Positions 11,677 to 59,562 of a DNA stretch of 64,000 nt are shown here, in pieces. Positions within the stretch are counted from its first letter, which is position 1. Each line of letters begins with the position of its first letter. A program made the translations under genes and the position numbers. The DNA is from a virus (lineage: Duplodnaviria > Caudoviricetes), in IMG/VR virus record IMGVR_UViG_3300003523_000075, positions 4,581 to 68,580 of that record, one strand, 5' to 3'. Under the pieces are notes generated by a model that was not told the DNA's origin, made no database searches, and was given only the letters and a program-made list of their open reading frames with translations.

Positions 11677-11760
11677 GCCGGAGTGGTGGAATTGGTAGAC
11701 ACGAGGGATTTAAAATCCCTTGTCTGAAAAGACGTGTGGGTTCAAATCCCACCTCTGGTA
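11677..11760 (+). tRNA. trnL: tRNA-Leu (anticodon UAA)
   Basis: Acceptor gccggag/ctctggt, D-loop GGAATTGGTAGAC, anticodon arm gaggga-TTTAAAA-tccctt, long variable arm, T-loop GGTTCAAATCC. No encoded CCA. Confidence 0.92.
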
Positions 11761-11798
11761 CTAAAACAAATTATTGTTAAACATTTAAAACAAACAAC

Positions 11799-14235: not shown

Positions 14236-14310
14236 GCTCTAGTCGTCTAATTGGTTAGGACACCACCCTTTCACGGTGGAGATTTACGGGTTCGAGTCCC
14301 GTCTAGAGTA
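14236..14310 (+). tRNA. trnE: tRNA-Glu (anticodon UUC)
   Basis: Acceptor gctctag/ctagagt, anticodon arm ccacc-CTTTCAC-ggtgg, T-arm acggg-TTCGAGT-cccgt. Confidence 0.92.
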
Positions 14311-14422
14311 CATAATAAAACAATAGTTTATTGTTATAAAGTGGATGGAATTTTGAATACTCCTTTTGAGGAATAACCACTATAATAAAAATCTGAAAAC
14401 GGAGTTAATGTTTTATAATATA

Positions 14423-14622: not shown

Positions 14623-14693
14623 TGTTCTATGGTGTAATGGTAGCACAGCAGATTTTGGTTCTGTTAGTCTAGGTTCGAATCCTGGTAGGACAA
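14623..14693 (+). tRNA. trnQ: tRNA-Gln (anticodon UUG)
   Basis: Acceptor tgttcta/taggaca, D-arm gtgt-aatggt-agcac, anticodon arm gcaga-TTTTGGT-tctgt, T-loop GGTTCGAATCC. Confidence 0.92.
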
Positions 14694-14710
14694 CTAAAAT
14701 AAATAAAACT

Positions 14711-43600: not shown

Positions 43601-46600
43601 TTTGATGTCTTAATGCTTCTACAATTCCAGTGCCGTTAATACCAAAATCATTATATAATAAACTATTAGGTATCATTCTACTAACACCAGTTTTAGTCAT
43701 ATTATATCCTTCCACAACAAAAGCATATTTTATTACATCATAAGCGGCTAAAGCTATAAGAGGATTTGTACTAGTAAATGCATTTTCAAAATCAATATAA
43801 ACATCTTCTATAGATTTAGATGTATCTATAAAACTAAGACTATGAAAACCATATTTATATTTACCAACACCTTCTGTATTATTTATATTAGGTTCTATAT
43901 AATCAAACAATCCTCTATCTCTAAAATTCTCCTTAATAAAAATAACTTTTTGTGCAGGAGTCATTTTAGCAAATTCTTTTAATTCATCATCAGTAGGATT
44001 ATTAAGATTTTTAACACTAAAAGGTTCTAATACAGGTTCTCCATCTTTATAAGATTTTTCTACTAAATATACTGCATCAGCACTGTATCCAAAAATTCTA
44101 CTTTTTTCTATTTCTTTTGCTGATTCTAAAATATCAGATTTACTATCAATAGGAATATCAAAATCAAAACCTGTAAAATCTTTAGTTCTAACATATTTAA
44201 TAGGTAAACTTATATTACCGGTAGCATCATATAATCTACCAATAATATATTTTTCAAAAGATTTATATAGTTTTTCATTAAACTTTTTATCTCCACTAAA
44301 TCTATCTTCTAACCCTTTAACAAAATTAATAAAACCTTCTTTTTGAGTATCGAATAACATTCTATTAATTTTAATACTAGGTGCAGTAGAATATTTAAGA
44401 AAATAATATAAAGGAGGATATTTACTTTCTTCTACGGGGGAGCTTATAAAAGAATCAAGTCCTTTTTCAATACCAGGATAAATAGCACTAAGAAAATTAC
44501 TTTCACCCACCTGTAAAGGAAAATCTTCAATATTATTTTCAATTAAATCACTAATATCATCAAATACCTTATTAGTTTCAAATATTGTTTGTTTTGCACC
44601 AAATCTATCAGGATTACATAATCTAGCAGTTTTAGTAATAATACTAGATAAATTATTAAGTTTATTAAACATTAAAATTATACCTAAATCATAAAGAAGT
44701 TTTTCTTTACCAGATCTAGGATGTTTAACTTCATCTATCATTTCTTGGGAATTTAATGCTAATTCAGCATTATCTTCAGTATAAATAGATAATTCAGCAC
44801 CATTCCATAATTTTTTAAATTCACTACCAAAATGTTTTTTAAGAAGTTTAATAGTATCATCTAAAGTTTTATAAGTTAAATCCATTCCATCAAATAATTC
44901 AGAAGCTATTTCTTTAATAGCTGAATCTATTGGTTTAGTAGTACTATCTTTATAAACAGATTTACTTATATTATAATGTTTAACAATTCTACTAATACCA
45001 TCTTGTAACATAAATGCTACTGCAGTATTATAATCCATTCCTAAATCAGGAAATAGTTTATATACTCCAAAAGTAAAATCATTAACATTAGGAACAGCAC
45101 CTTCTTTAATAATATCGAGTTGGTGTGCAGTAGTTTGTGAAGAATATGCAGTAAGAAGTTTACCTATTATATTTCTATTATCATTAGTCCAACCAAATTT
45201 ATCAAATGTTATTTTTATATTACTACCTTTAACAGATTCTACATTGTTTTCTCCAAATCTTTTTATAGCATCTTCTTTACTTATAACATCAGTACTATAA
45301 ATAACTTTTATTGCTTGTTTTTCTATTAATGTTGGTCTAATAGTATTACATACAGAACAAAAACTATCACGAGTAACACTAAATGCTTTAAGTTTAGCAC
45401 CACTCATAGCATCTTCCATATAAGCTGCTTGATCTAAAAATGAATAAGGACTTCTACTATTTCTTTTTTCTTTAATAGAAGGTTTCATGATATCTTTAAT
45501 AGCATCTTTAATATCATCAAAATTAGATCTAGACAAATTCTCTTCTAAACTAGCAGGATTAGATAATATTTTAAGCATACAATCAACAAGTTCATTATCA
45601 ATTGCATTTCTACTATTATCTGACATTACATCTAATTGATGTTCTTTAGACCAATCTTCTCTACTTTCGAATCCATGTTCTGTAGCCCAATTTTCGTAAC
45701 TAAAACCACCTTGTTCTTTTATTATTTTATTTACATCTTTTAATACACTATCTGACATTTTACTTCTAATATAGTTATCATAGCTTTCTCCAGCTAAATC
45801 ACTATATTTTACTTTTTCTATAGTACCATCATATTTAATTTGTGTAGCATGTTGAATACCATATACAGAGTCAATATCAAAGTCAGAACCTGTTTGAGCA
45901 ACCCATTCATTAGGAACAACTATTGTAGAACCATAGGCATCATCTATAAATCCTACAACTTTCATTTTACAAATAGATTGCTTACCTTCAGTAGGAATAC
46001 GGTAACCTATAATATCATCAAGTTTTGCATCTTGTAATTCTTTTAGTAAATCTTCTTTAGATTTAATATTTCCGTCTTTATCATATCTATTTAATCCAAA
46101 GAATGAAGCAGGAACCATTACTTCAACATAATCACAATATTTACCATCTTCAGTAGTATGATATTTTAAATTTTTATCATAAGTTACACCTTGTACTTTT
46201 TCTCCAAAAGATTTAAAACCTATATTAGTTACTTGTGCTGCATGGAATCCTGGAAGTTTTTGTCTAGTAATATTATTATTAAATATAGCTTGAGCCATAC
46301 TTTCTAATTTCTGAGAAACCATACTCATAAAATTAGGCATAATAGTAACATTTCCATCTTCTCCAATTTGTATTGTATCTAATGTTACGTAATCTACCAT
46401 ATTACTATCAAGACCTAGACGGAATAATTCATTTTTTAATTTCTCATATAAAAGCCTAAAATCTACTTTGCTTATCGTAGTACCTAAAACGCCATTCGAA
46501 GCCATAATCGGGTTATTTTGGCTGTCTAGTGGTACTTTTAACTCTCGCATCAACTCTACAAAACTACCTTTAATCTTTGAACAATAACAATCTATAAAAT

Positions 46601-49600
46601 GTTTTTTAGTTTCATATAATGCACTACCTTCAGAAATATTATCAATAATTTTCTTCATTATTTGAATACCTGCTTTATTTTGTGCATTAGCGTGTTGAGG
46701 TGTTTCTTGTTGAGTATATAAAAACCTATAATCATATAGTTTTTTAGCATTTTCAACTTTAGTACCAAAATCACTAATAGGATGTTCTGGATCATTAAGT
46801 TCGTCAACTATATCTTGTTTTAAAGTTCCAGTTTTAGCATCCCATATTTCAAGAGTATTACTTTTACCTGCTTTACTAGTTTCTTCAGTATTTAATTGAT
46901 CAATACCATATTTAGTCATCAAATTATAAACTTGTTCTAATTCAGTTCCTTTAATTAACTGAGGTATTAAAACAAATTCAGAGTTTTTGATTTGATTAGG
47001 TGCAAATAAATTCTTACTATCTTTTAAATCAACATTATAATAGAAATTCTTTTGTACTTGTACAAATTCTTCTAAATCTTGAGCATTTAAATCTTCACCT
47101 CTAAGAATTTTCTCTATTAATGCTTTATGTTTATAAAGTTGACCTCTACCAGCAATACGTCTAATAAACTCATCAAATGTTATATAAGATTGAGCATTAT
47201 TAGCATTTATATCTTGATAACCACCATCACCTTTTGGACCATAAATTAAAGCGTTTGCTGCTTTTTCACTAAGATTTATATCTTTAGCAGTTAATCTATC
47301 TTTAAGTATTTTTAATGTTTCTTTATTAGTAATTATACTATTTTTAATAGTTATTCCAGTAAATCTATTATATTGTTTTACTTGATAACCACCACTTACA
47401 TTATCGTTTTGATCAACAGTTATTGTACCATCATCAAAACGCATTGCATTTAAAGCACTAGTATGTACTACAGTTTTAGTATTTACATCAAAATCATCTG
47501 TAAAATTAACAAAGCCATAAGGAACACCACTACCTTGTACCTCTTTTGCACGTTTAAGAAAAGTTTGAGTATCTTTATAAAATTTACTATCACCTTCAAA
47601 TAAATCACCAAAACTATTATAAGTTAAATGATAATTTAAAAGAAATTCACCAGCAGTATCATGATTTAATTGAACTGTACCATTCTCATTAATGTTATCA
47701 GTAGATTGAAGAACTTGATATCCTTGTTCAATATATTTAAGGATAAATTGTTCTATCATATCATCTATTTTATCTTGTATTTCTGGAGATATATTTATTT
47801 CTTTTATAGTACTATATCCGTGTAATGAAGCTTCTTTATCATTGCTATCTTTAATAACTTGAATAAAGTTTCCACTTTCTCCCCCGTAGAGAAAATTGAA
47901 TAGTTGTTGCATTAATTTATCACCATAATTAACTTCTTCACCTTTTTCTTCATCATATAATACAAATCTATCACTATGAAATACATTACCAACAAGATAT
48001 TCTGTACCATCAGAATTCTTTTTAACTATAACTCCTTTTTTATGATGATAATTATCAAAACAACCATCTATTTCATATCCATTTTTAGTATTAGGTTGTT
48101 TCCACATAATTTCATCATTACTATCTCTAGCAACACATCCATTTTCATGAGTAACAAATAAAGTATCTATAGCTATTGCTGCATTTAATATTTCTTGTTT
48201 AAATATATTTCTAAAATTATTAAATATAGGATGAGTTCTACTAACTGAATATTTATATTTTCCTTCTTTTTCTAATTTAGTTCTAGTAGTTTCTCTTAAA
48301 TTTTTCTTTATATTAATATCAATACCTTCATTACTAATACCAACAAATTCAATATTAGATATAGTTTCACCGTCATAATGTCCTTTTATAAAGAAAATAT
48401 TTTTATCATTTTGAATTTTATTTTCTTCATCTTCAACTTCTTCACTTTTATCTATATATTGAAAAGCAAGAGTTATATCTTGATCTTTATATTTATTTAA
48501 AGATTTTCTATAATAAGGAGATATAGCATAATTTCTAATACCAGTAGAAGTAAATAATTTATTAAAAATATCAATATCATATATTTTTAATATATTCTTT
48601 TTATTATTAGCAGTAACAACTTCTTTCATCTGTTCTGCTGATAATATACTACCTACAAGTTTTTGTTCTTGGTCTTTAAGTATATTGTTTATTTCATCAG
48701 TATTACTATGTTTAAATAATCCTTTAACAGAAAGTTTAGGTGCAGTTACTACAAAATTCTTTGGTGCATCAGAAGGAGTACGCATAAAATATTTTGCAGT
48801 TTGAAAGTTTTTAATAGTAGTATCTAAACTAGTAGGTTCGTTAAAAGCAATAAAAGCAGAAGCTATATAATCACTTCCACTCATTTCTTTGTATAAAGAA
48901 GAACTATCTGTATCTTCGTTTTTAGCACCATCATATAGATTTAATGATAATAAATCTTTAGCATATTCTGTAGGTGTTATTTTTCCAGTTATATCTTTTC
49001 TAAATAAACCAGGATTTTCTATTTGACCTTTCTCATTAACTCTTTCGAGCATTATATTACTAAAGTCGTATTGTCTAGATTTAAATCTAAATTTACCAAA
49101 ATTTTCTAAACTTTCATCGTTCTGCAATGTTTTAAGTATTCCACTAAGCATATTGCTATTAATAACATCAGAAGATTGATTATTATTAACATTAGTAGAA
49201 TTTAATTCAACACGAACTACAGAATAATCAGAAAGCATATCAGCTAAAGTAATAACTATAGAATTATGTTTATCTGAAATATAATGTTCTCTATATAATG
49301 AATTTACATCAATATATTTATCAGGATCTTTTTCTTCTTTTTCAGCTAATTTAGCATTTTCCTTATATGCTTTAGTTATTCTTATAGCTCTGTAATCAAA
49401 ATTACGTTTAGTAGCTTTGGAGGCTTCTATTGTGTCATCTAATATTTTGATTAATGATGTTATATTAGATTGTATATTAACGACGTTGTTAACTTTATTA
49501 TTAGTTATATAACTTCTAACAGCATATTCTGTTATATTAGGATAAAACTTTTTAAGTTCTTTTGTTATATCGTTTATAATAACATCTCTTATATCAAAAT

Positions 49601-51248
49601 CACTTATTACATTTTCACCAGCAAGACGTATTTTATTTTTAATATTATCTACTTTACTTTTTACATCATCTAAATCATTTGTTAAAGATGTATATTTTAA
49701 ATTATTTAAATACTCTTGTCTTAATGAATATTTTTTATTACTTCTTGTGTTAGATATTCTAGCATAAGGTTTTCCGTTATTAACACCTGTTATTATTTTA
49801 CTAACAACTAATTTACCAAATGTTCTATAAAAAGCATAACAAAAATCTTTATTATTTTCTAATTCTTTAGCTAAAGTATGAAATGCTGCACATCCTTCAA
49901 TAGTATCAGCTATAGTTCTTATAGATTGTATCATAGTTTCTGGACTAGTATAATCTACACTAGAATATAATATAGTACAACATTCATCAGCATCCATACA
50001 AGTAGGAACACCTAATGGATTATCTAAATTATAATCTGCACGACCATCAATTTCAGAATCAGAATTAAGTTTTTTAAGTGTTGATAAGTAAGTTCTAATA
50101 TTTGTATCAACATGAGCCATCACAGTAGTATATGTTCCACTGTGATCATACATAGATATTGTAATATTTGTATCATCATTAGATAAATTACCATCTTCAG
50201 GATTAGATTCTCCATCTTGAGATATTTCAGCATCTACAGCTTTCAAATCTTCTTCATTATCTAATTCATCATCTTTAGCAAAACGAATATCTTTTAATTC
50301 TTTAGTTCTACATACTTCTTCTATAAATGAATCATCTAATTTATAATTTTTCTTTTCTTCAGCAGGTAAAGAATCATATTCTCCTTTAGTCAATCTATCA
50401 CTATTAATTTTGTTTACATACGAAGGCAATACAAATTCTTTATATACAGCAAATCTATTCTTATCAGTTAAAGACATATTATCTCCACCTAATATAGATT
50501 CTATTTCATTAGCTGATAATCGACCTTTACGAATTCTAGTTATTATCTCTTGTTTACTTAAATCACTTTTATTAGAAACAGCTTCTGCTAATTCTTCTAT
50601 TATTCTATTTTTAGCTATATTAAAACAAAAAGTTTTATCTTTTGCCTTAATATTAAAATTACCATTTAAATTTTTACTAGTTAAAAAGTTTCTTATTTGT
50701 CCTACTTCTTGTAAAGATTTTAAATGATTTAAATATTGTAATTTAGTTTCGTCATTAAGTTTACTTTTTCTTATAATACTTTCTGCAACATATTTTGCTC
50801 TAATTAATTGAGCATTTTCATATTTAGCAGGATCTGTAAATATATAATTACGTTCTAAATTATCATAAAATTCTTTAATATGTTCTGCAACATGTTTTTT
50901 AGCAAAACTTCTATCATTTGCAGATTCATATCCATTTACTATTACAGGATTATATGATGTAGTTTTACGATTAGCAGCTTTAACGCTTGGTGTACTTTCA
51001 TTATAATATTTTATAATAGCTTCACGCATTCTAACACCTTCTCCTTTATCAAAATTAAGTGGAGTTTTATAGTGTTCTTCATACCAAGTTTTAAATTCAT
51101 CTGTAGGTATTATTGTACCATCAGATTCTTGTTCTTTTACAACTTTATTAAAATATTTAAAAAATTGAGTAGTATTTAAACCACAAAAATCTTTTAAATT
51201 CTTTAAAGCAGAAGCTTTACTTAAATCAATTTTAATAGGACAACTCAT
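37620..51248 (-). CDS. Giant virion RNA polymerase (fused beta/beta-prime-like, crAss type)
   Basis: 4542 aa. Catalytic GSDFDIDS (about 45870-45890), GYRIPTEGKQS, RTPSDAPK and FLKRAKE motifs. Confidence 0.93.
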   Translation of the reverse strand: MSCPIKIDLSKASALKNLKDFCGLNTTQFFKYFNKVVKEQESDGTIIPTDEFKTWYEEHYKTPLNFDKGEGVRMREAIIKYYNESTPSVKAANRKTTSYNPVIVNGYESANDRSFAKKHVAEHIKEFYDNLERNYIFTDPAKYENAQLIRAKYVAESIIRKSKLNDETKLQYLNHLKSLQEVGQIRNFLTSKNLNGNFNIKAKDKTFCFNIAKNRIIEELAEAVSNKSDLSKQEIITRIRKGRLSANEIESILGGDNMSLTDKNRFAVYKEFVLPSYVNKINSDRLTKGEYDSLPAEEKKNYKLDDSFIEEVCRTKELKDIRFAKDDELDNEEDLKAVDAEISQDGESNPEDGNLSNDDTNITISMYDHSGTYTTVMAHVDTNIRTYLSTLKKLNSDSEIDGRADYNLDNPLGVPTCMDADECCTILYSSVDYTSPETMIQSIRTIADTIEGCAAFHTLAKELENNKDFCYAFYRTFGKLVVSKIITGVNNGKPYARISNTRSNKKYSLRQEYLNNLKYTSLTNDLDDVKSKVDNIKNKIRLAGENVISDFDIRDVIINDITKELKKFYPNITEYAVRSYITNNKVNNVVNIQSNITSLIKILDDTIEASKATKRNFDYRAIRITKAYKENAKLAEKEEKDPDKYIDVNSLYREHYISDKHNSIVITLADMLSDYSVVRVELNSTNVNNNQSSDVINSNMLSGILKTLQNDESLENFGKFRFKSRQYDFSNIMLERVNEKGQIENPGLFRKDITGKITPTEYAKDLLSLNLYDGAKNEDTDSSSLYKEMSGSDYIASAFIAFNEPTSLDTTIKNFQTAKYFMRTPSDAPKNFVVTAPKLSVKGLFKHSNTDEINNILKDQEQKLVGSILSAEQMKEVVTANNKKNILKIYDIDIFNKLFTSTGIRNYAISPYYRKSLNKYKDQDITLAFQYIDKSEEVEDEENKIQNDKNIFFIKGHYDGETISNIEFVGISNEGIDINIKKNLRETTRTKLEKEGKYKYSVSRTHPIFNNFRNIFKQEILNAAIAIDTLFVTHENGCVARDSNDEIMWKQPNTKNGYEIDGCFDNYHHKKGVIVKKNSDGTEYLVGNVFHSDRFVLYDEEKGEEVNYGDKLMQQLFNFLYGGESGNFIQVIKDSNDKEASLHGYSTIKEINISPEIQDKIDDMIEQFILKYIEQGYQVLQSTDNINENGTVQLNHDTAGEFLLNYHLTYNSFGDLFEGDSKFYKDTQTFLKRAKEVQGSGVPYGFVNFTDDFDVNTKTVVHTSALNAMRFDDGTITVDQNDNVSGGYQVKQYNRFTGITIKNSIITNKETLKILKDRLTAKDINLSEKAANALIYGPKGDGGYQDINANNAQSYITFDEFIRRIAGRGQLYKHKALIEKILRGEDLNAQDLEEFVQVQKNFYYNVDLKDSKNLFAPNQIKNSEFVLIPQLIKGTELEQVYNLMTKYGIDQLNTEETSKAGKSNTLEIWDAKTGTLKQDIVDELNDPEHPISDFGTKVENAKKLYDYRFLYTQQETPQHANAQNKAGIQIMKKIIDNISEGSALYETKKHFIDCYCSKIKGSFVELMRELKVPLDSQNNPIMASNGVLGTTISKVDFRLLYEKLKNELFRLGLDSNMVDYVTLDTIQIGEDGNVTIMPNFMSMVSQKLESMAQAIFNNNITRQKLPGFHAAQVTNIGFKSFGEKVQGVTYDKNLKYHTTEDGKYCDYVEVMVPASFFGLNRYDKDGNIKSKEDLLKELQDAKLDDIIGYRIPTEGKQSICKMKVVGFIDDAYGSTIVVPNEWVAQTGSDFDIDSVYGIQHATQIKYDGTIEKVKYSDLAGESYDNYIRSKMSDSVLKDVNKIIKEQGGFSYENWATEHGFESREDWSKEHQLDVMSDNSRNAIDNELVDCMLKILSNPASLEENLSRSNFDDIKDAIKDIMKPSIKEKRNSRSPYSFLDQAAYMEDAMSGAKLKAFSVTRDSFCSVCNTIRPTLIEKQAIKVIYSTDVISKEDAIKRFGENNVESVKGSNIKITFDKFGWTNDNRNIIGKLLTAYSSQTTAHQLDIIKEGAVPNVNDFTFGVYKLFPDLGMDYNTAVAFMLQDGISRIVKHYNISKSVYKDSTTKPIDSAIKEIASELFDGMDLTYKTLDDTIKLLKKHFGSEFKKLWNGAELSIYTEDNAELALNSQEMIDEVKHPRSGKEKLLYDLGIILMFNKLNNLSSIITKTARLCNPDRFGAKQTIFETNKVFDDISDLIENNIEDFPLQVGESNFLSAIYPGIEKGLDSFISSPVEESKYPPLYYFLKYSTAPSIKINRMLFDTQKEGFINFVKGLEDRFSGDKKFNEKLYKSFEKYIIGRLYDATGNISLPIKYVRTKDFTGFDFDIPIDSKSDILESAKEIEKSRIFGYSADAVYLVEKSYKDGEPVLEPFSVKNLNNPTDDELKEFAKMTPAQKVIFIKENFRDRGLFDYIEPNINNTEGVGKYKYGFHSLSFIDTSKSIEDVYIDFENAFTSTNPLIALAAYDVIKYAFVVEGYNMTKTGVSRMIPNSLLYNDFGINGTGIVEALRHQMSTIESVLTDSVYEDYLRSHSTNSNIDFAKVKKVNGKYELTKDDDFIVLELNAEDADKRKNNRALAEKYHIIYTKGKDYDINKYVRLSFGSNSEVLYKIEEVYNGMVVLYPLNNLEENEHGVFSANPQNNKYASSEYYNLIINDYFKDDVSSFNTTDFKAVRELKTKKDYKFKTKKKSENRLATPIDFDNPTIDIAGSVYYLDKETKRFFEDKNNLDSRLFLRLVNFDKYIKYPGSANGLSKDFIINEGKENEQVVTTNIVRLSKDTINKHIKYYLSEKGRTASIKKADKDYERFINELRAERTITDENIHSIPIYEVVGYRETQTKPSTDEPTIMKSAIRENHVVTLGDVASQIYRGIGRRSSFEIKDKDAAKIKAKWTNKNITSNNVRESAKTILESSAQYISGRVNHILDTLKYFEKDPDTGEFMSIIDPRVLDIIKDDPVIREKYLETIAEAKALTKQFGLIKELDIKSEDESLQFYLKTIKDAVTNLENDTTIKTAQVYFADKYLSTLSTNPLVRQDIASILDGFWSTNAFTAAIGDLQETSNPLIQIISKRVINNLTIAENRAKEEVRKLRHFKKDIEARAAQEGLSVSLDNMIDENGDWILSFSKELTDTLDKLYTDILQAKQVYGAGSIESLKAQLAYDKFKLEHVNQKYVDDYYREKIEADEYMIEKHPIIFAEYNRLIERRKEIQSYINKGTIDQALEQELQDINKQIRDLRDENYVDMDSHTIKEKPIYDDINPLSGTEEEKRKKILNSFTSAKALNNYIEKQQKINEKYFEKDAIFGFEEELERNLKIIANREKRNPIGDITVPMSELMEDEEYVKAKEWITKNAIFKLKKENKEEINNAFKAIRKKKKSSIFKELIAKRNARTSTGEIDGTKFTDEDIEAIREDELKDYNTRESSPLSDTILIRSKHNDGVVYNEKFYQGMTSDGQKTKEYLDIVQRINDLLAPYYDNPTRLIKFEKIPDTKEGIAVLNELAKLYDELEEIKKTEGSSNGKEVHKFIENNVEFVVDEDEYKRQESFIQGKSIDFRNAWRRANRILVDGKSEINHYIYGYAKPKAGKEEQFIDKEKSDALKLIKETYTTTPTSFYYEKSLEMKKKGKKAFEDWYYKNHIYNPNTHMYQPLKCWMTFTYRNEDNNLGEWIPNFTKEENTPKETTLNKNFKKGVGNSMNYKEGTGFDNPAYKNLNKYEIELRTHIQSLFNSLARIESARRYLNKGHLPYEHKKKEEGLKGIGKELAKTVGWVEGEDGKKPFFDDDEIDYAYDVVRDMPMLHKLDQITLTKDNLNAPLREPGETDEQYLERVKEKLNKVQEIKEKNVKAHKEAISRDWWNVFEDFIMQASHYNAIQDNKMLLYYGRDMLDDLEVYQRKYGFFGDYKTFSGVDNSKEYITKHDDNLKKQYINWSRRLIHDQWKKPNSEFTKWASRLQSITSAQYMMMNIRGGIANVTLGQTQMYAEAVAGQYLDRKELLKGMAMWSGAVPSFLTHLYKENSSSLVDAIIKHFNVVDYDEQTGKSRIVEDPASKYITRFRNSMFAPQTVGEHYMQNSTLLGMLLSHRLCEVDGKLVFMNEQEFINRVYENTLMEILSDEQKAEYEKFKRTIASDANVEKDYALFRKDITHDFLKKCSVEQQREFAKKRKENTKLAKDEFNNDEIHPTILSQLELTEDGYMGIKEGTLLSKYNVPNEKGEPSDAEKILADFRGRVISVNKKIHGVYDKLGQAQIENTWWGSLAMQYHKHIYPGILKRYRREGFYNEQRGTIEKGCFISLIDFIKTPIDSYKTKKKLNDAEIKGLESIKMLFKELLDFATHINLNWNLLPDYEKANIRRYLANWYGVMAALFASMAIRALADDDDEEGILYNLSLYEADRLSQESFQFNPYGMMTQFRTLWSTPIAAQSGIQDLVQSAGLFTKFLREGSDFDPYYHSGRYAGEYKLSVYVQRRIPIWRGIKTGFIDIAESNSYYKIGKDPLQFGFTEKWLEWADEHGR

Positions 51249-51264
51249 AATTTTATTATTTTAT

Positions 51265-54200
51265 TTATTTTTTACAACTAATATTAAATTCACCTTTATT
51301 AATTCTATCAACTATTTGTTCACGTTCATCTCCTTCAAATCTATTTATGAAATCAGATATAGATGAAGATTTATCTTCTATAACATCTTTAGATGTTTTA
51401 ATTTCTTGAATAGATGATTTACGTATATCATTATCTTCAGTACTATAAGTACCTATATTATCAGTAGCTGATTTAATTTGATTAGGATTTTTAACAACCC
51501 ATTGAGTTGTTGGATTACTCATATTACTTTCTTTATCATATCTTTCTATGATAACAGAATCGTAATTATTGTCTTTTATAAGTTCATTTTCTCTAGCAGT
51601 ATATTCAGATAAAGTTTTATATTTACCATCTTTTACAGAAGAATATGCAGGTGTTCTCATGTTTAAAAACACTGTAATAACTCTATTCTTTTTGTATCTA
51701 AAAGCTTTATTATAACTATCAGTGAAAAATATTGAATGTTTGTCATGTACTAAATGTTTACCTCTTTCATTGTTTTCATCAATTTCAAAAGTATTGAAGT
51801 CTTTGTCAGTACCGTGATAAAACAGTTTTGGTTCACCATTTTCATCAACTGCTTTAGAGACATCGCTTCTTAAATTATTAGTAAATGTAGTATCTACATA
51901 ATCATCTAAAGGCTGTATCTTATCTTGATTGTTCTCAAGTTCTTTGTTGCTTTCAAACGGCTTAACACCTTCAGCAGTAGCAAGAGTTATATGAGAAATT
52001 TTATTATCACTATTAGGATTTTCAACAACAAGTACATCTACTTTATCTGTAGTTAGTCTACCTATAATATGCAACTTCTCTTTATTACCCTCTCTATTGT
52101 CAAAAGGTTGTCTACCAAACTTATTAGTAGAATGATGATAAAATTTATTAGGAAGCTCTGAAGGGTACTTATCCATTAGTTCTTTGATATTATCTACATT
52201 ATTAGCAGTAAATATTGTAGGATTTTCCCAATCACCAAACCATTCTTTAAAGGCTTTAGTACGAACTTGTAACCATTGTCTTTCATTAAGATTAGTATGA
52301 TTACCATTAGGAGCCTTCATAAAAGTACCATCAGCAATAGCTTGGTCTTTTATTTTTTGCATTTCTTCAGTATAATCTACTTTTTCTTCTTGTATTGATG
52401 AAAAATTTATTAAATCATCATCACTAATTATACTACTACTATCAACAGATTGTGTATCACTAACTATTGTATTATCTTGTTCTACAATTGGTTCTTCTTT
52501 TGTTTCATTTATTTCTTCTTGTACTTCAGGTTCTTTTAAATCTTCATCTAAAGTTAATTCTAATTGTTTTGTATTTACTTTTTTACGAACAACTTTTTTC
52601 TTAATAACAGGTTTTTCTTCTTCTGTTTTAGGTTCTACTATTTCTTCAACTTCTTTTTGTTGATTGTCATAAATAGTAAATACAGTACTTAAAGTATTAA
52701 ATTCTTTTTGTAAAAGACCTTGTTTGTTATTTATTTTCCAACCAAAAGCTTTAGCTAAAAAATTAAATATCTTTTGTAATAAACTTTGTTTTCTTTTACC
52801 ACTTTCAACTTTATCAGCATCAATACTATCTAAAGTTAATGCAAGTTCTTTACTAGTTAATGTTTCAACAAGAAATTCTTCAAGACCTCTTCTATTTATT
52901 TTACCATCTGTATAATATAATTTTTTATCTTCTTCAGTAAGATTATATAAATATTTATTTAACGAACTATTAGTATTTTTAGCTGCAAATTCATCAAACA
53001 CTTCTCTAAGTTTATCTATTTCAGAATCTTTAGTTCCTATTAAAACTTGGTGTATTTGTTCATGTATAAGTTTTCTTACAGCTTCTTTTTTATCTTCTAT
53101 AGTTCCATTAGCTAAATCTAACCACTCTTTTCCTATTACAGTAGTACCGGCTGGAACTTCTATACCTAATGTTTCATCTTTATAAGTTTTATCTTTACTA
53201 ACATTAGTATATGCGTTATCACCGATATATTTGTTTACAAAAATAAGATTTTTTGGGAATAAATCAATCATTTGACTGTTAAAATTTAATCCCTTTAATA
53301 AATTTTTCAAAATATTATCTGTAATACTTTTATCATATTTAGCAACACCAGTAAATATTGTTTTAACAAGTCTTTTACTAGCTGTTTCAGATGCAGAAGG
53401 TTTATTATCTTTTTCTACATCTATAGTATCTAATATTTCTTTTACCTTAGTAATTATAGGTTTTTCTTCATTTCTTCTTACGGGGGAGGTTACAGAAACA
53501 ACTTTTAATTTTACTTGTTGTGCAGCCTCTGGATTTCCACCACCAAATCTATCAAAATTTGTTTTACCATTTTCTAAATTAGGTCTAGTTCTTAATAATA
53601 CTAAATCATTATCTAAAATGAAATCATTATAAGTATCATATTCAAATACTTTATCTCCTAAGGTAATAGTAAATTTACCAGTACTTTTAGGAATACTGAC
53701 TATTTCACTTTCAGGAACTGTATGAGTAGTATCTGATTTTACAAATTCATGATTTATATTTATAGTAAAATTATTAGTTAATGTATTAACTAAAGTATCT
53801 ACTATTTCATTACTATCTGTTATAGTATTATAATCAGTAGGAACGTTATAACTTTTATCTCCTTTTATTCTAAGTTGTAAAAATCCGTTGTTATCACTAA
53901 CAAGCATTATACTTAAATAAGGAGAGTTATTACTATCCCTTTTAGATATATTAAATCCTATAGTTTTACCTGTATTACTATTTTTAGCTACTTTAACAAA
54001 ACCATATAATAAACCAGAATTTATTGTATTACCACCAATTCTATTATTAAATAAACTAGTTAATAATCTTTCTAATTTATCTAAACTAGGATTTTCAGCA
54101 ATATCTTGTAATTCAGATTTAATGTATTTCTTTAAAGCAGAAGTAAAATCTTTTCCTTTTTTACTACTTCTTTTATCTGTATTTATATTAGCTATTGTTC

Positions 54201-57200
54201 TAGGATAAGCTTGTATTAACTCAGGTTTTGCATTTGTACTAGTACTTCTTACAGGTATTAATACACAAGTATTACCAACTGTTGCATTAGGTCTATCTAT
54301 TTCACCAGTTTCTGTACTAATATAAGGTTTATTATCAGTTCTATCTTTATTATTTCCAGCAACAAGTAATTTACCTGTTTTTTCACAAGAAGCTAATCTT
54401 ATTGTACCTTTATGTTCACTACCTATTGCCTTACTAGCAGGATAAAGTTTATCTTCTATTTCATTATAATTAATTTTTTCACCTGATTCTAATTCAATAC
54501 GTTTTCCTTCTGTAATATCAGATACAACAACATCACTATCAGCAGAAGCTTGTAAATTTAATACAAGGTTTATACTAGTAAATACTTTATTAAACCAATG
54601 ATTTACACTTAACTTACGAAGATCATTTATAAAATCTTTACTATCTTCATCTGGTTCTACTTCTTTCATATAACCCCAAATCTTACCAAGATGATTTAAT
54701 AAAGTAACATCATCTGTATTAGAATTAGCATAACCATTCTTTTTAGCATCTTGTATATACGGATGATTAGCAAAATCAGATACAAGGTTATCAAATTGTT
54801 CTTGATTTAAATAATTTCTATAATAAGCCCATTTAAGAATTATATCATTTAATTCTTTAGCTTTAGGATCACTACCTGAAATTCCATTTAACAACCATCT
54901 AGTAAATAATGTTTTAAGATCACTTCTTATTCCACCATTACCTTCAAAATGAACATCATAATTCCAACCTTCATTAACTTGTTTATACCCTCCATCTGAT
55001 AAAACTTCAGGATAAGGAAAATGTCCTATATGAATACCGTTTATTTCAAATTCTATTGCTTTATCTGTTTTAGATACTTTAATTTTATCATTTATATTTA
55101 AACTATCTATAGTATCATATAATTTTTTAAGAGAATCTTTATCATTATTTTTATTTAAATATTCTATAACATCCATAAGATTTACTGGAAATTCATTTTT
55201 ACTTATAGGATGTATATGTTTTAATCTTTCAATAGCTTTAATTCTAGAAAGATTTAATGCTTCTTCTACATTACTATCAGTTAATACATAATGTTCAATA
55301 TCTTGTTCTAATACAGTTTTAAGTTTATTAAATAATACTTCAGAAATATGACTATTTCCTCCACAAACTTTATTACAAAAACTTAATAAACTATTTAAAC
55401 TAATATAATACTTACCATCTATTGCTTCTTCAGAAATATAATTTATATAAGTTTTGACAAGATTATCAACAGAATCTTTAAAATTTTGTATATCTTCAGC
55501 AGTACTAGCAGCTATGTTTTCTTTTATATTACTAGCTTTTACTACAGCATCTACTACCGCATTTCCTTCTTTATTAACTTTATCAACACTTAAATTATAT
55601 AATTCTTCAGCAGTTTTAACAGCTTTACGTAATACTTTATCAGCTTTGTCTATAAGATTAGGATCTTTAAGTAATTCTCTATATTCTGGAATCATAGATA
55701 ATTCTGATTCTAATGCAGAATAATCTATTTTATTTCCAGTTTTTATAGCTGTTATTAATTTATTATAAATTTTATTATCAAATATACTTTCTACTTCTTC
55801 TACTTTAGATAAATCTTCTATACCCGTTTCTAAAATATCATCATTTGGTATTTCAACATCATCATCTGGAGGAATGGTATCAGACATATATGTATCTTCT
55901 ATAGGAGTTTCTATTTCCTCCCCCGTAGAAAGAATTGATGCATCTTCTTCAGCTTCTAATTCTTCATTTTCTTGTTGTTCTTGATTATAATTATCTCTTT
56001 CTATCTTTGCTCTATTTTCTTCATTATTAACAACAAGTCTTCCTTTTTCTACAACTTCTACTATTTGTCCATTTTGTATTCTAACTATAGGTCTTTTAGC
56101 AAATAACCAAGCAGGTTCTCCTTCTGGAGTTTCATCCATTAAACTAACTCCTTCTTCTTGATCATAAAATTCAGGATCTTCTAATCTTTTATGACCAAGA
56201 GTAGTACGAATATCTTCTGTAACAATTTGTCCTTGATTATTTGTACCAAGAAGATTTATTTCTTCTGCTATTTCTCCATTTTCTATATATACTAAACCAT
56301 CATCACTACGTTGATATTTGACTAGTCCGCTTTGTGGGTTGAAAGGCTCTTTTGATTGTCCGACAGCCTCGCTCGTATCGGTTTTAGCTTGTTTGGTAGG
56401 TTTTTGTTGCTTTTTGGATATATCGGTAGGAGATTGTTTTTTATTGTCAGATTTTGAATTTTCAGATTTTGAAGAACTTTTCTTTTCGTTCTCTTTTTCT
56501 TTATTTTCTTCAGTATCAACTCTTGCAGCTTTTACATCTGCATGAGTATCAAGTATTCTTTCTATAGCCATAAAAAGATTTCTATTAAGACTACTAGAAA
56601 GATTAAGATAATTTAATGTATTCTTTAATAAGGTTTTATCTGCATCAGATAAAGCTTCAAGACCTGGAATATCATTAAATTGTTTACCATAAAAACATTG
56701 ATATACAGCAGATTTTATAACATCTTTACCATATTTATCAGATAATGATTTAAGAGTTTCTATTGCATCAGCAACAGCTTTTTGTCTTAAATCATTCATA
56801 ACATTGTGTTTATATTCTAATTCATGTTCAAATTGAGATTTACTAGTTATAATAGTTGGTTCAAGTAAAGCTTTTTCTGTTTGAATTGCTGCTATAGTAC
56901 TATAATCTGCAAATAATTCTGGACTAAGTTCAGTAAGAGATTCTACACTATTTTTACCTAAATGTCTAGAATATGTATCTTGAAATACTTGAAAAGCTTG
57001 TAATGCATATTCATCTATATCACTAAGTTTTTCATCAAGAGTTTTTAAATAATTAAAGTTTCCTTCTTCTATTGCTTTAGCTATAGCTACATATTCTTTA
57101 CTACCTTCTACATCTTGTATTATTTTTTCTGTATTATCTTTATCAGTAACAGTTTTGTAATTTAAACTATTTTGTATTCCAAATAATAATGCAGATTTAC

Positions 57201-59562
57201 CATTTTCAGGATTAACATTATATATTAAATTACGAAGACTTTTAATACTTTCGTTTATTTCATGTAATTCTTCAGTTCCTTCTATTGTAGAAAGTCTTGT
57301 TTTATCATTAAGAAGTTTTTTCTTTTCTTGTTCAAGTTCTCCTAATTGTTCAGTTAGATAAGAAACTTGTATCATGTCTTGCCAAGATAGTTTAAGAGTA
57401 TCTAATTGTTGAGCAATATCTTGATGTTCTCTTAAATAATCTTCATTAACCTTCGCACTAGCTTTCCATCTTTCTAATTCAGTATTTAATTTATCTTTAT
57501 ATAATTCTTTATTAATATTTTCTCTAGCTATAAGTTGTATATATTCTGTAGGAACATAATCACCAGTTTCAGCTGTTATTTGTTTTGATAAATTATTAAG
57601 ATGTTTTACATTAGAATCATATTTATTTTGTACTTCATCTATTAATCTTAAATCTTCTGCTTGTTGACGTACAGATTCTTCTTCACTAATACCTAATTTT
57701 TCACTTATAGCTTTTCTAACATTTTCATCAGCAATATAAGACTTTAATTGTTTAATAGTACCTGCATCCATAGCTGTAAGAGCCATCTGAGTAATTCTAT
57801 CTCTTCTAGCTCTTTCTTTTAACAATTCAGCTTCTTCAGGAGTAATAGTTCTATTTTCACTTGGATTGAATGGATCTTTACCTTCATTAATAGCTTTTAC
57901 TTGACTTTGATAAATATCATCAGCCATCAATCTATTACGAAGTTCAGCTTCAGCTCGTTTAGTATCATCACTAAACCATAATTCTTTATATTTAGGTTCA
58001 GCTACTTCTTTACCTTCTGCTTTAAGTTTTTCATATCTTTCTTTTGCTTTTTTATTTTCTTCTTTTCTATCTAAAGCAACTCTACCTTTATTAAATGCAG
58101 AACCTAAACCTTGGAAAGCAATACCACCAGCAACACCCCAAAATGCACTTTCCCATAATTCAGGTTGATTAATATAACTATTAAATCTTTTACTAAAATA
58201 AGATTCATTAGCATCTCCTAACATAACATGCCCAAGATTCATTCCTTCCTCTTGAGCAATATAGTTAATACCTTCTTCTAAACCTTCACTTAATTGAGCA
58301 CCTATTGTTAATGTAGAACCTACTGTTAAATCATTTATTTTATCTAATGCTTTTCTTTTAAATGTTTTATTTCTTTGGATTTCTTTAAGTTCTTCTACAG
58401 TTTTATATTTACCAGCATATCGTTTAGCATCTTTGTTTAAACGTCTTGCTTCAGTAGTAAGTTTAGCATTTCTAAATCCATGAAATGGTATATTCTTAAG
58501 AGCATAAAGTTGAATAACATCAAATACAGTATTTACATAATCTATTTTAAATGTAGTATCAGCAGCTTTTTTAGCTATATCTTTAGCAACTGCATCTCTG
58601 TCATTAACATCAACATTTTCACTTATACTATCTTTATTTTGTTCTAACCATTCTTGATATTCTTCTGGTGTCATATTGTTAAACTTCTCAGAAGCATCAG
58701 CATACATATTATTATATGTTTGTCTAGCTTCTTGATAGTTTTCCATAGTTCTACTTAAAGCAGCTGTAGCAAAATTTTCACCCATAAGTTTGAGTGTTTC
58801 TTTTGTACCAGATGAAGGAGTAAATGCAGTTTTTAACCCAGTAAGTTTTTCATTTTTTATTGCTTTTTCAGCATTAGTTGCAAACTTTTCAGTTTTAGCT
58901 GCTTTACGCATTAATTTATCTGCTTTTGCAGCACTATTAAGTCCTTTAACTCCTTTACCTGCAAGTTTTGCTAATTTAACAGCACCAGTACTAGGAATAA
59001 GAAGTGTTAGTGAACTCATAATACTTGGAATATTATTAGCCCACCAACCTACATCTCCTAGTCCACCATGTGCTATATCTACACCAGGAGTCGTATAAAT
59101 AGGTGCTATCTCATTATTAAATTTATCCTGCCAACCTTCTAAAGTTCTGCTGACAGGATTATTAAAATCATGATCTGAAACACCTATTGCTTGTCCTACT
59201 GCATCAAACAAATCTGATATAGCTAGTCCAGTACCTAAACCTATTTCTGAAACAACAGTTTGAGCAATAGCATTTCCAATTTTTTCCCAACCAGATTGTG
59301 CAGCAGCTAATTGTTCATCTAGTTTACCACTAGCATAATCTTGAGGATTAAATCTAATTCCTCTATCTAAATATTTTTTAACATCTTCATAATTTATATT
59401 AAATGCTGAAGGAGATGTTTTTTCTAATTCTTTATGAATATAAGGATCATAATCAGAAGCAAACAAATTATCGGTAGGATTTATTGCAATTTCAGGAAGT
59501 ATGTCAGCTATTGATTCTTGAGATTTGTTGCTATTTGAAGTAACACTTTTTGGAATAGGCAT
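51265..59562 (-). CDS. Giant ejected cargo protein with zincin protease motif and C-terminal ADP-ribosyltransferase/2H-phosphodiesterase cassette
   Basis: 2765 aa. HEQIH...EEFLVE (53050-53064). QVRTKAFKEWFGDW...DENGEPKLFYHGT...IFFT...NPNQIKSAT with an inserted HHST...HITL domain. Confidence 0.8.
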   Translation of the reverse strand: MPIPKSVTSNSNKSQESIADILPEIAINPTDNLFASDYDPYIHKELEKTSPSAFNINYEDVKKYLDRGIRFNPQDYASGKLDEQLAAAQSGWEKIGNAIAQTVVSEIGLGTGLAISDLFDAVGQAIGVSDHDFNNPVSRTLEGWQDKFNNEIAPIYTTPGVDIAHGGLGDVGWWANNIPSIMSSLTLLIPSTGAVKLAKLAGKGVKGLNSAAKADKLMRKAAKTEKFATNAEKAIKNEKLTGLKTAFTPSSGTKETLKLMGENFATAALSRTMENYQEARQTYNNMYADASEKFNNMTPEEYQEWLEQNKDSISENVDVNDRDAVAKDIAKKAADTTFKIDYVNTVFDVIQLYALKNIPFHGFRNAKLTTEARRLNKDAKRYAGKYKTVEELKEIQRNKTFKRKALDKINDLTVGSTLTIGAQLSEGLEEGINYIAQEEGMNLGHVMLGDANESYFSKRFNSYINQPELWESAFWGVAGGIAFQGLGSAFNKGRVALDRKEENKKAKERYEKLKAEGKEVAEPKYKELWFSDDTKRAEAELRNRLMADDIYQSQVKAINEGKDPFNPSENRTITPEEAELLKERARRDRITQMALTAMDAGTIKQLKSYIADENVRKAISEKLGISEEESVRQQAEDLRLIDEVQNKYDSNVKHLNNLSKQITAETGDYVPTEYIQLIARENINKELYKDKLNTELERWKASAKVNEDYLREHQDIAQQLDTLKLSWQDMIQVSYLTEQLGELEQEKKKLLNDKTRLSTIEGTEELHEINESIKSLRNLIYNVNPENGKSALLFGIQNSLNYKTVTDKDNTEKIIQDVEGSKEYVAIAKAIEEGNFNYLKTLDEKLSDIDEYALQAFQVFQDTYSRHLGKNSVESLTELSPELFADYSTIAAIQTEKALLEPTIITSKSQFEHELEYKHNVMNDLRQKAVADAIETLKSLSDKYGKDVIKSAVYQCFYGKQFNDIPGLEALSDADKTLLKNTLNYLNLSSSLNRNLFMAIERILDTHADVKAARVDTEENKEKENEKKSSSKSENSKSDNKKQSPTDISKKQQKPTKQAKTDTSEAVGQSKEPFNPQSGLVKYQRSDDGLVYIENGEIAEEINLLGTNNQGQIVTEDIRTTLGHKRLEDPEFYDQEEGVSLMDETPEGEPAWLFAKRPIVRIQNGQIVEVVEKGRLVVNNEENRAKIERDNYNQEQQENEELEAEEDASILSTGEEIETPIEDTYMSDTIPPDDDVEIPNDDILETGIEDLSKVEEVESIFDNKIYNKLITAIKTGNKIDYSALESELSMIPEYRELLKDPNLIDKADKVLRKAVKTAEELYNLSVDKVNKEGNAVVDAVVKASNIKENIAASTAEDIQNFKDSVDNLVKTYINYISEEAIDGKYYISLNSLLSFCNKVCGGNSHISEVLFNKLKTVLEQDIEHYVLTDSNVEEALNLSRIKAIERLKHIHPISKNEFPVNLMDVIEYLNKNNDKDSLKKLYDTIDSLNINDKIKVSKTDKAIEFEINGIHIGHFPYPEVLSDGGYKQVNEGWNYDVHFEGNGGIRSDLKTLFTRWLLNGISGSDPKAKELNDIILKWAYYRNYLNQEQFDNLVSDFANHPYIQDAKKNGYANSNTDDVTLLNHLGKIWGYMKEVEPDEDSKDFINDLRKLSVNHWFNKVFTSINLVLNLQASADSDVVVSDITEGKRIELESGEKINYNEIEDKLYPASKAIGSEHKGTIRLASCEKTGKLLVAGNNKDRTDNKPYISTETGEIDRPNATVGNTCVLIPVRSTSTNAKPELIQAYPRTIANINTDKRSSKKGKDFTSALKKYIKSELQDIAENPSLDKLERLLTSLFNNRIGGNTINSGLLYGFVKVAKNSNTGKTIGFNISKRDSNNSPYLSIMLVSDNNGFLQLRIKGDKSYNVPTDYNTITDSNEIVDTLVNTLTNNFTININHEFVKSDTTHTVPESEIVSIPKSTGKFTITLGDKVFEYDTYNDFILDNDLVLLRTRPNLENGKTNFDRFGGGNPEAAQQVKLKVVSVTSPVRRNEEKPIITKVKEILDTIDVEKDNKPSASETASKRLVKTIFTGVAKYDKSITDNILKNLLKGLNFNSQMIDLFPKNLIFVNKYIGDNAYTNVSKDKTYKDETLGIEVPAGTTVIGKEWLDLANGTIEDKKEAVRKLIHEQIHQVLIGTKDSEIDKLREVFDEFAAKNTNSSLNKYLYNLTEEDKKLYYTDGKINRRGLEEFLVETLTSKELALTLDSIDADKVESGKRKQSLLQKIFNFLAKAFGWKINNKQGLLQKEFNTLSTVFTIYDNQQKEVEEIVEPKTEEEKPVIKKKVVRKKVNTKQLELTLDEDLKEPEVQEEINETKEEPIVEQDNTIVSDTQSVDSSSIISDDDLINFSSIQEEKVDYTEEMQKIKDQAIADGTFMKAPNGNHTNLNERQWLQVRTKAFKEWFGDWENPTIFTANNVDNIKELMDKYPSELPNKFYHHSTNKFGRQPFDNREGNKEKLHIIGRLTTDKVDVLVVENPNSDNKISHITLATAEGVKPFESNKELENNQDKIQPLDDYVDTTFTNNLRSDVSKAVDENGEPKLFYHGTDKDFNTFEIDENNERGKHLVHDKHSIFFTDSYNKAFRYKKNRVITVFLNMRTPAYSSVKDGKYKTLSEYTARENELIKDNNYDSVIIERYDKESNMSNPTTQWVVKNPNQIKSATDNIGTYSTEDNDIRKSSIQEIKTSKDVIEDKSSSISDFINRFEGDEREQIVDRINKGEFNISCKK

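Follow-up and report, generated by a model that had tools for sequence, protein, structure and literature searches.

Near the C-terminus of a 2765-amino-acid (aa) protein of a crAss-like phage, two conserved segments that adjoin in most relatives are separated by a stretch carrying a pair of histidine motifs. The protein is encoded in the IMG/VR record IMGVR_UViG_3300003523_000075, of which a stretch of 64,000 nucleotides (positions 4,581 to 68,580; hereafter the window) was analysed. An earlier, sequence-only reading of this DNA had proposed that a 2H phosphoesterase is nested inside an ADP-ribosyltransferase (ART) domain and that both enter the host cell with the phage DNA as an anti-defence or RNA-repair cassette. 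The locus raises the questions of what the inserted segment is, whether it lies within an ART fold, and what such a combination would do. Our overall answer, to which we give a probability of about 0.55, is that the C-terminal region is an add-on effector cassette of the polyvalent type, in which a nested, mobile 2H domain resembling CNPase and the cyclic phosphodiesterase (CPD) of tRNA ligases would open 2',3'-cyclic phosphates. The gene and the three parts of the cassette are as follows.

51265..59562, minus strand: gene of the 2765-aa giant protein (open reading frame (ORF) list, translation, and tblastn to Carjivirus communis KP06_gp45, cr271_1, ctcc615 and others)
52222..52362, minus strand: leader segment, aa 2401-2447 (...MKAPNGNHTNLNERQWLQVRTKAFKEWFGDWEN), predicted N-terminal helical element of the ART unit
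51859..52221, minus strand: inserted mini 2H phosphoesterase domain, aa 2448-2568, with H2477-x-T2479 and H2524-x-T2526 (homologues, AlphaFold2 (AF2) model, fold matches)
51448..51858, minus strand: ART-PolyVal core, aa 2569-2705, with H2583/F2612/Q2687 and NQIKSA at aa 2694-2699 (Pfam PF18760, fold matches)

The insert alone was used as a phmmer query in an exhaustive search of 1.84 billion representatives, which returned 197 cluster representatives with E<=1e-3, of which 117 reach E<=1e-10. Among these homologues are free-standing proteins of 120-160 aa as well as giant proteins, in which the module occupies many different positions. When 58 of the homologues were aligned, invariance was limited to five columns, H, T, H, I and T (H2477, T2479, H2524, I2525 and T2526); a first motif H-x-T-[IVL] and a second motif HIT[LI] occur in every full-length homologue. 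The strings that the sequence-only reading had picked out are found where it placed them (YHHST, aa 2475-2479, 52126-52140; SHITL, aa 2523-2527, 51982-51996; EGVKPFESN, aa 2531-2539), and the histidines, on whose conservation among homologues it had staked its proposal, are unchanged in all 58 sequences. The Pfam model tRNA_lig_CPD (PF08302) matches 38 of these 58 members (E<0.01, best E 2.6e-8), over the second motif only.

Structure prediction, on which the proposal had likewise been made to depend, returned a 2H fold (AF2 predicted local distance difference test (pLDDT) 93.8 for the insert). With Foldseek, the insert model gave 42 rows at E<0.05 that are CNPase catalytic-domain entries with a probability of 1.0, with no E-value below 1e-3, and unrelated rows (miropin, a fungal RNA kinase) scored below the CNPase entries. 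A search independent of Foldseek (VIA) matched the insert to mouse CNPase with Z 10.8 and a root-mean-square deviation (rmsd) of 2.3 over 111 aa, followed by Acb1 (5.7), a Burkholderia phage phosphodiesterase (5.1), the Arabidopsis CPDase (4.9), and then LigT, ns2, VP3 and YjcG; all fold matches with Z >=3.8 are solved 2H enzymes. When the model of the whole cassette was compared with CNPase, Z was 12.0 (overall range for CNPase, 10.8-12.0). Its motifs and its predicted fold mark the insert as a true 2H phosphoesterase, of the tRNA-ligase-CPD/CNPase type, as had been proposed; it is related to that family and would be expected to work alike, but it is no full-length member. Its histidines are 47 residues apart and its total length is about 118 residues, which makes it a minimal 2H domain, the smallest version of the 2H fold found in this analysis. 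NCBIfam gave nothing for the insert or the cassette, no dedicated Pfam family was found either, and the PHROGs matches of the insert family are confined to families of unknown function (phrog_36523 for 27 of the 58 members, plus phrog_30335 and phrog_21376). A fimbrial protein (3r4r; profile E 5e-4) was discarded as a spurious relative that aligns without the His motifs and with per-domain E-values >=0.42.

The site of the insertion can be read from relatives. The leader segment ends in WFGDW, and in three crAss-like relatives from GenBank that were aligned with it, no more than about 5 residues lie between WFGDWxN and SKVVDENGEP; in the window copy, 121 aa stand in place of the usual 5-residue linker of the DPENA type, a net gain of about 116 aa (the first estimate had been about 115 aa). 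Hidden Markov models of the leader and core domains were run on 74 loci (71 from IMG/VR and three GenBank records), and the two domains are directly joined in all of them except L004 and L005, which bear the insert. In a second scan, L076 and L077 were found to be insert-bearing too, so viral-contig loci with the insert number four, plus several metagenomic giant proteins. This survey of presence and absence, which the sequence-only reading had called for, agrees with its statement that the flanking segments are normally contiguous, as they are in the three GenBank relatives and some 70 IMG/VR loci. The nesting is itself variable: in P0010 and P0012 the 2H domain stands before a short leader helix, and in P0009 and P0019 only the first ART strand is present after it. 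One protein of L005 (IMGVR_UViG_3300028534_000004, ORF aa 488-1072) holds an ordinary leader-ART unit followed by a short-leader-2H-ART unit, and it matches the 2622-aa representative P0007.

Whether the insert lies inside the ART fold, rather than beside it, depends on the status of the leader. Its FKxWFGDW motif (F38, K39 and WFGDW) is invariant in 27 sequences. A model of the cassette (aa 2401-2730) was built on cassette-bearing rows, from an alignment (A5) restricted to cassette rows and solo 2H proteins; mixed alignments were dropped, as MAFFT put ART cores onto the 2H insert. The model reached a predicted template modelling score (pTM) of 0.77, with a pLDDT >90 for the leader. PARP1/2, tankyrase, RCD1 and exotoxin A align with it over model residues 12-26 to 301-302, skipping the 2H domain, with 118-131 residues aligned, compared with 103-109 for the matches that cover the core only (NatT, ParT, RES and DT-type). 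When leader and core were modelled as separate chains, the complex score was 0.71, against 0.19 for the best of 3 controls (58 of 80 solved complexes attain this mark, as do 2 of 110 mismatched pairs; we used our own alignments, and these counts hold roughly). The runs agreed in at least 75% of the contacts, with a partner pLDDT of at least 79, and in the predicted interface WFGDW contacts three elements of the core: its first strand, the VFLN strand and IKSA, an invariant motif. Such contacts would explain why the WFGDW, IKSA and VFLN elements are the best conserved of the unit. Because leader and core adjoin directly in about 70 loci, the fold alignments skip the 2H domain, and the leader is predicted to pack on the core, the modelling supports the leader as part of the ART fold and the 2H as a domain-in-domain insertion. 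The view that the flanking segments form one unit of the ART-PolyVal type, with the 2H nested in it, is thus borne out at the level of models: the composite unit would consist of a leader helix segment and an ART-PolyVal core, split by the 121-aa 2H domain in the loop before the first core strand.

The leader was also seen in other settings. Its consensus, APNGxxxNLxxxQxxxVRTxxFKEWFGDWEN, is better conserved across contigs than the ART core (44-91% vs 23-37% identity to the window copy), and phages of Shewanella and Pseudoalteromonas have short leader copies in proteins whose annotation is methyltransferase or DarB-like.

Conservation differs strongly between the insert and its surroundings. 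Among nine cassettes the insert is always 120-121 aa long and 54-89% identical, whereas identity among the surrounding ART cores is 27-52%, taken over pairs with at least 56 aligned residues. Moreover, insert-bearing cores resemble insert-free ones: the core of L076 is 85% identical to that of the insert-free L048, and the core of L077 is 69% identical to that of the insert-free cr271_1. For these two reasons the 2H domain appears in the alignments as a mobile plug-in, with gains or losses at one and the same site in ART units that have diverged from one another. FKEWFGDWEN and SKVVDENGEPLVVYHGT, both near-invariant, flank this site and are candidate sequences for recombination. The invariant catalytic residues, together with an identity of 54-89% against 27-52% for the cores, point to strong purifying selection on the 2H domain.

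The ART core presents a less uniform picture. Pfam PF18760 (ART-PolyVal) matches aa 2573-2705 with 75.5 bits (cut-off 31.2, E 1e-20) over profile positions 1-139 of 140, and the match falls entirely after the insert; the fold matches of the core are PARP, NatT, ParT, RES and DT-type proteins (Z 5-6.7). The published active-site configuration of ART-PolyVal domains is H-Y-D (PMC5512222), and the triad of the window copy is not that one but H-F-Q (H2583, F2612, Q2687). Among 28 leader-linked ART cores, the first position is H in 26, the second is most often F (14), then Y (9) and W (3), and the third is D or E in 10, while the NQIKSA motif is invariant in their alignment; judged by this alignment, H-F-Q is ordinary for the leader-linked subfamily. 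The sequence-only reading had noted a Q (in TTQWVV) at a position described as usually acidic: the residue is indeed there, at Q2687, but the position is acidic in only 10 of the 28 cores. Its caution about ART activity was justified all the same, although F is the commonest residue at the second position and the third is variable. Because F and Q occupy two triad positions and an acidic third residue is found in only 10 of 28, transferase activity of the core is doubtful. Given the catalytic acid in 10 of 28 and the invariant NQIKSA, many leader-linked 'ARTs' may be no classical transferases.

The protein that carries the cassette was identified by tblastn. Its residues 46-2278 are orthologous to the crAssphage 'RNAP-associated protein fused to zincin protease' (RNAP, RNA polymerase), as in Carjivirus communis KP06_gp45 and many others, so the sequence-only reading had recognised the host as the crAss giant RNAP-associated protein correctly. 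Beyond aa 2278, C-terminal coverage was found only in the Obtuvirinae-like relatives cr271_1 and ctcc615. Because the orthologous stretch ends there and few relatives extend further, the comparison marks the C-terminal cassette as an add-on to a conserved crassvirus protein. In crAss001 virions, three RNAP-associated cargo proteins were identified by mass spectrometry (PMC10172136); it is on the strength of this observation and of the polyvalent-protein concept that we infer delivery of the present protein with the virion.

Clues to the function of the 2H domain come from its fusion partners. In P0104 (302 aa; TIGR04075 positions 6-154, E 9e-14) and P0048 (574 aa), encoded at loci L084 and L085, the mini-2H is fused to a Pnkp-type polynucleotide kinase, which gives a 'healing' pair like that of CNPase and Trl1 in reversed order, and Pfam detected AAA_33 domains among the fusions of the family. 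Among the neighbours of P0048 and P0104, Pfam found no RNA ligase (the contig of P0104 is 1.6 kb long). Further partners, distributed over P0096, P0024, P0091, P0137, P0039, P0049 and P0060, are a PARP catalytic domain (P0096), nucleotidyltransferases of the pol-beta type and like poly(A) polymerase, HD, ASCH, GNAT, DUF7178 and Phage_L5_gp82. We lean towards the opening of cyclic phosphates, rather than an Acb1-like cleavage of signal molecules, because the likeness to CNPase is about twice that to Acb1, no Acb1 was retrieved from the PDB by the family profile, and the fusions belong to an RNA-end toolkit.

From the domain identities, the intact motifs, the insertion polymorphism and the nesting seen in the models, we infer a substrate, a route into the cell and a time of action. 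With both His-x-Thr motifs intact, the 2H domain would most likely open 2',3'-cyclic phosphates as a metal-independent cyclic phosphodiesterase, and it would act once the protein has entered the cell with the DNA. Candidate substrates are RNA ends left by metal-independent host nucleases, or free 2',3'-cyclic nucleotides. The ART core (H-F-Q) would bind, and possibly use, NAD+ on some target. The 2H domain would be exchanged or lost at its fixed site between divergent ART units, probably by recombination through the conserved flanks.

Several observations weigh against this interpretation. The 2765-aa protein showed no orthology to the crAss001 virion cargo proteins in tblastn at E<=1e-6, so its packaging is a matter of analogy. 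The nesting is deduced from alignment ranges, a pTM value and a model-confidence score, and the ART triad has F and Q at two of its positions, with an acidic third residue in only 10 of 28 relatives. The window copy itself scores 22.6-22.7 bits with PF08302, just below the cut-off of 23, and its match is confined to positions 190-220 of the 250 in the profile; the cut-off is passed by at least one relative (P0137, 25.4 bits). Fold and motifs of the 2H family do not fix the substrate: other 2H enzymes cut 3'-5' cyclic oligonucleotides (Acb1) or 2'-5' oligoadenylate, or act as RNases. The product of a CPD-type enzyme, a 2'-phosphate, is unsuited to ligation of the RtcB type, so that an RNA 'repair' would not obviously be completed. 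No RNA ligase was matched in the 68.6-kb record (PF09414 and RtcB PF01139; the record is estimated to be ~72% complete), and Iyer et al. never encountered ligases alongside 2H domains of this kind; their own proposals for them were an RNase role or the degradation of immune nucleotides (PMC5512222).

Among the other readings of the insert, the one we take most seriously, while holding it to be unlikely, is also the chief idea of the sequence-only reading: an anti-signalling nuclease like Acb1, which would on entry cleave the 3'-5' cyclic di- or trinucleotides of the antiphage system that signals by cyclic oligonucleotides (CBASS), the cyclic oligoadenylate of type III CRISPR, or messengers of the 2'-5' oligoadenylate type. 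The 2H fold is indeed common to Acb1 (7t27, Z 5.7-6.5), the phosphodiesterase of Burkholderia phage BCSR5 (Z 5.1-5.4) and viral 2'-5' phosphodiesterases; solo phage versions of 120-160 aa exist, as with Acb1; and delivery before gene expression would fit the countering of fast signalling systems, a role already predicted for the 2H domains of polyvalent proteins (PMC5512222). The resemblance to Acb1 stays at the level of the superfamily, however: the 58-member family profile retrieved none from PDB sequences even at E<=10, CNPase is about twice as close in structure, and the fusions of the family are with RNA-end enzymes (polynucleotide kinase, nucleotidyltransferases, HD) and not with signal-binding domains. 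An attack on host RNA on entry, with the 2H domain as an RNase (a 3' exoribonuclease like Usb1, or an endonuclease leaving 2',3'-cyclic phosphate (>p) ends), is very improbable. Some 2H enzymes are RNases, and polyvalent proteins often have RNases at equivalent positions (PMC5512222), but the fold match with Usb1 is weak (Z 3.0-4.0 vs 10.8-12 for CNPase) and the 118-aa core lacks an RNA-binding extension. We give marginally less credit still to a passenger module spread by recombination, with little or no activity, in which an inactive ART would accompany a decaying or purely structural 2H domain. The H-F-Q triad, the poor conservation of its third position in the subfamily and the absence of the cassette from most relatives would suit such a passenger; the four catalytic 2H residues are nonetheless invariant, and the 2H domain is kept at 54-89% identity across hosts whose ART cores are at 27-52%.

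The two domains might also work together, which we regard as improbable, less so than the RNase or the passenger and more so than the Acb1-like nuclease. In one form of this idea, the cassette processes RNA ends: the 2H domain opens >p to a 2'-phosphate, and the ART domain removes the phosphate in the manner of Tpt1 or caps the end with ADP-ribose; alternatively, the 2H domain clears ADP-ribose 1'',2''-cyclic phosphate. The yeast and plant pathway, in which a CPD of the same lineage is followed by the ART-fold enzyme Tpt1, offers a precedent (PMC9503650); 2H and ART adjoin in most close homologues, including the variant of P0010 and P0012, a PARP-type domain co-occurs with the mini-2H in P0096, and the cassette model is compact (pTM 0.77). 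The ART-PolyVal core, however, showed no specific likeness to Tpt1 in the comparisons made: phmmer reached 8tfz at E=1 only, across a generic YHGT region, Tpt1 is absent among the top 50 fold matches of the cassette model, and what precedes the core is the conserved leader, the N-terminal RNA lobe of Tpt1 being missing. The frequent adjacency in close homologues goes back largely to one inherited junction (DDYVDTTF..NNL..DVSKVVDENGEP), so that the counts are not independent evidence of coupling, and ART is in any case the commonest polyvalent-protein domain (PMC5512222). The 2H domain is not always accompanied by ART, and within the same ART subtypes some units have the 2H domain and others lack it, which argues that each works alone; neither a ligase nor a kinase was found in the phage record. 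Seen as a single two-site machine, and with the same low probability, leader, 2H and ART would be held together at the ART loop so that the cyclic-phosphate cleft cooperates with the NAD+ site. Such a machine could possibly open RNA>p or an immune signal of the cyclic ADP-ribose type and then ADP-ribosylate or de-phosphorylate the product, and this would be a new NAD+-linked chemistry of nucleic-acid ends or signals, delivered before phage gene expression.

The preferred reading, a nested CNPase/CPD-like 2H domain in an add-on cassette, leaves four smaller features of the protein to be described.

53050..53064, minus strand: HEQIH, a zincin-type HExxH motif at aa 2167-2171, upstream of the cassette (relatives are annotated as zincin protease fusions)
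52384..52404, minus strand: upstream linker motif FSSIQEE, aa 2387-2393, recurring as KSSIQE after the cassette
51403..51447, minus strand: post-ART tail ending NDIRKSSIQE, aa 2706-2720 (N.G.FS..N.DIR.S is conserved in alignments)
51268..51402, minus strand: C-terminal tail, aa 2721-2765, ending ...NISCKK (alignment with crAss-like relatives and L076)

Despite the HEQIH motif, Pfam detected no peptidase domain in the 2765-aa protein. The post-ART tail is, from its conserved residues, a typical inter-module linker of polyvalent proteins. The pattern S[SA][IVL]xE occurs twice in the 2765-aa protein (0.49 expected), and both occurrences bracket the cassette. Processing at these SSIQE-type brackets, with the HExxH zincin region upstream, could set free a leader-2H-ART fragment of ~330 aa; alternatively, the brackets could be recombination joints. 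At both bracketing places SSVTE or SSITE is seen in relatives. Similar C-terminal ends of the ...ISC[KRM] kind are also seen in relatives (cr271_1 ...ISCM, ctcc615 ...SSCR, L076 ...ISCR), a conserved Cys-basic C-terminus on a presumed cargo protein.

The phage record, of which the window is the greater part, is 68.6 kb long and has a very low guanine plus cytosine (GC) content. The cassette has ~30% GC compared with 22-26% in its flanks, a difference too slight to argue for a foreign origin by base composition. Directly downstream of the giant gene lies an ORF of 4542 aa (37620-51248, minus strand), annotated in a relative as 'nuclear pore complex-like protein'; it is presumably a giant RNAP-related protein. 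It had no PHROG match at E<=1e-5, and for the neighbouring genes, this one included, PHROGs and Pfam gave nothing useful. Three phage tRNA genes are present (Leu-TAA, 11677-11761; Glu-TTC, 14236-14311; Gln-TTG, 14623-14694).

The closest known systems are the polyvalent proteins (Iyer, Burroughs, Anand, de Souza, Aravind 2017, PMC5512222), with which the present protein shares its nature as a giant multi-domain phage protein encoded beside virion and RNAP genes, the combination of a zincin-type HExxH region with ART-PolyVal and 2H, the existence of solo 2H proteins in phages, and a predicted role as an injected effector that acts early. That study already described such proteins with 2H and ART domains and made the same functional guesses, so that the theme is less novel than the sequence-only reading implied and our finding extends a class described in 2017. 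In contrast to the present case, crAss-like phages do not figure in the text of that study, where we found no 2H domain described within the junction of ART leader and core, and here the 2H domain is a fixed-site plug-in far better conserved than its host ART. With the catalytic domain of CNPase and the tRNA ligase CPD (PF08302), the insert shares two H-x-T motifs and, around the second of them, the signature PHITL..A.G..P..SN; CNPase is also its best match by structure (Z 10.8-12, rmsd 2.3-2.4 over 111-117 aa, ~20% identity), and some mini-2H members share with CNPase and Trl1 a fusion to a polynucleotide-kinase-like P-loop domain. It differs in being about half the size (118 aa vs 210-250), in the spacing of its histidines (47 vs ~80-100), and in being phage-borne, without a ligase partner and matched by the second half of the Pfam profile only. 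Acb1 is a free protein and is not known as a domain of a virion protein. Like the insert, it is a phage 2H phosphoesterase of small size for which counter-defence is a plausible role, but no sequence relationship between the two was detected (7t27; Hobbs et al. 2022, PMC9117128). T4 Alt shares the concept of a capsid-carried ART-fold enzyme delivered with the DNA, a delivery we assume here by analogy; Alt belongs to the R-S-E clade, whereas the present domain is an ART-PolyVal of the H-Y-[EDQ]/PARP-like clade with H-F-Q.

Compared with these systems, what is new is that the module is placed in a minimal CNPase/CPD-like family whose catalytic residues are invariant, that modelling evidence suggests that the WFGDW leader lies within the ART fold instead of being a linker, and that in the alignments the 2H domain behaves as a fixed-site plug-in with a conservation far above that of its host. 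crAss-like phages are the most abundant human gut viruses, and to our knowledge it is largely unknown what they inject alongside their DNA. The cassette offers a small (118-aa), easily expressed predicted enzyme with predicted catalytic residues and clear candidate substrates; if both active sites cooperate, it would also offer a new NAD+-linked RNA-end or signal chemistry. More generally, where polyvalent proteins are known as assemblies of many domains, the fixed-site plug-in is a tidy example of how such effectors are put together by domain shuffling.

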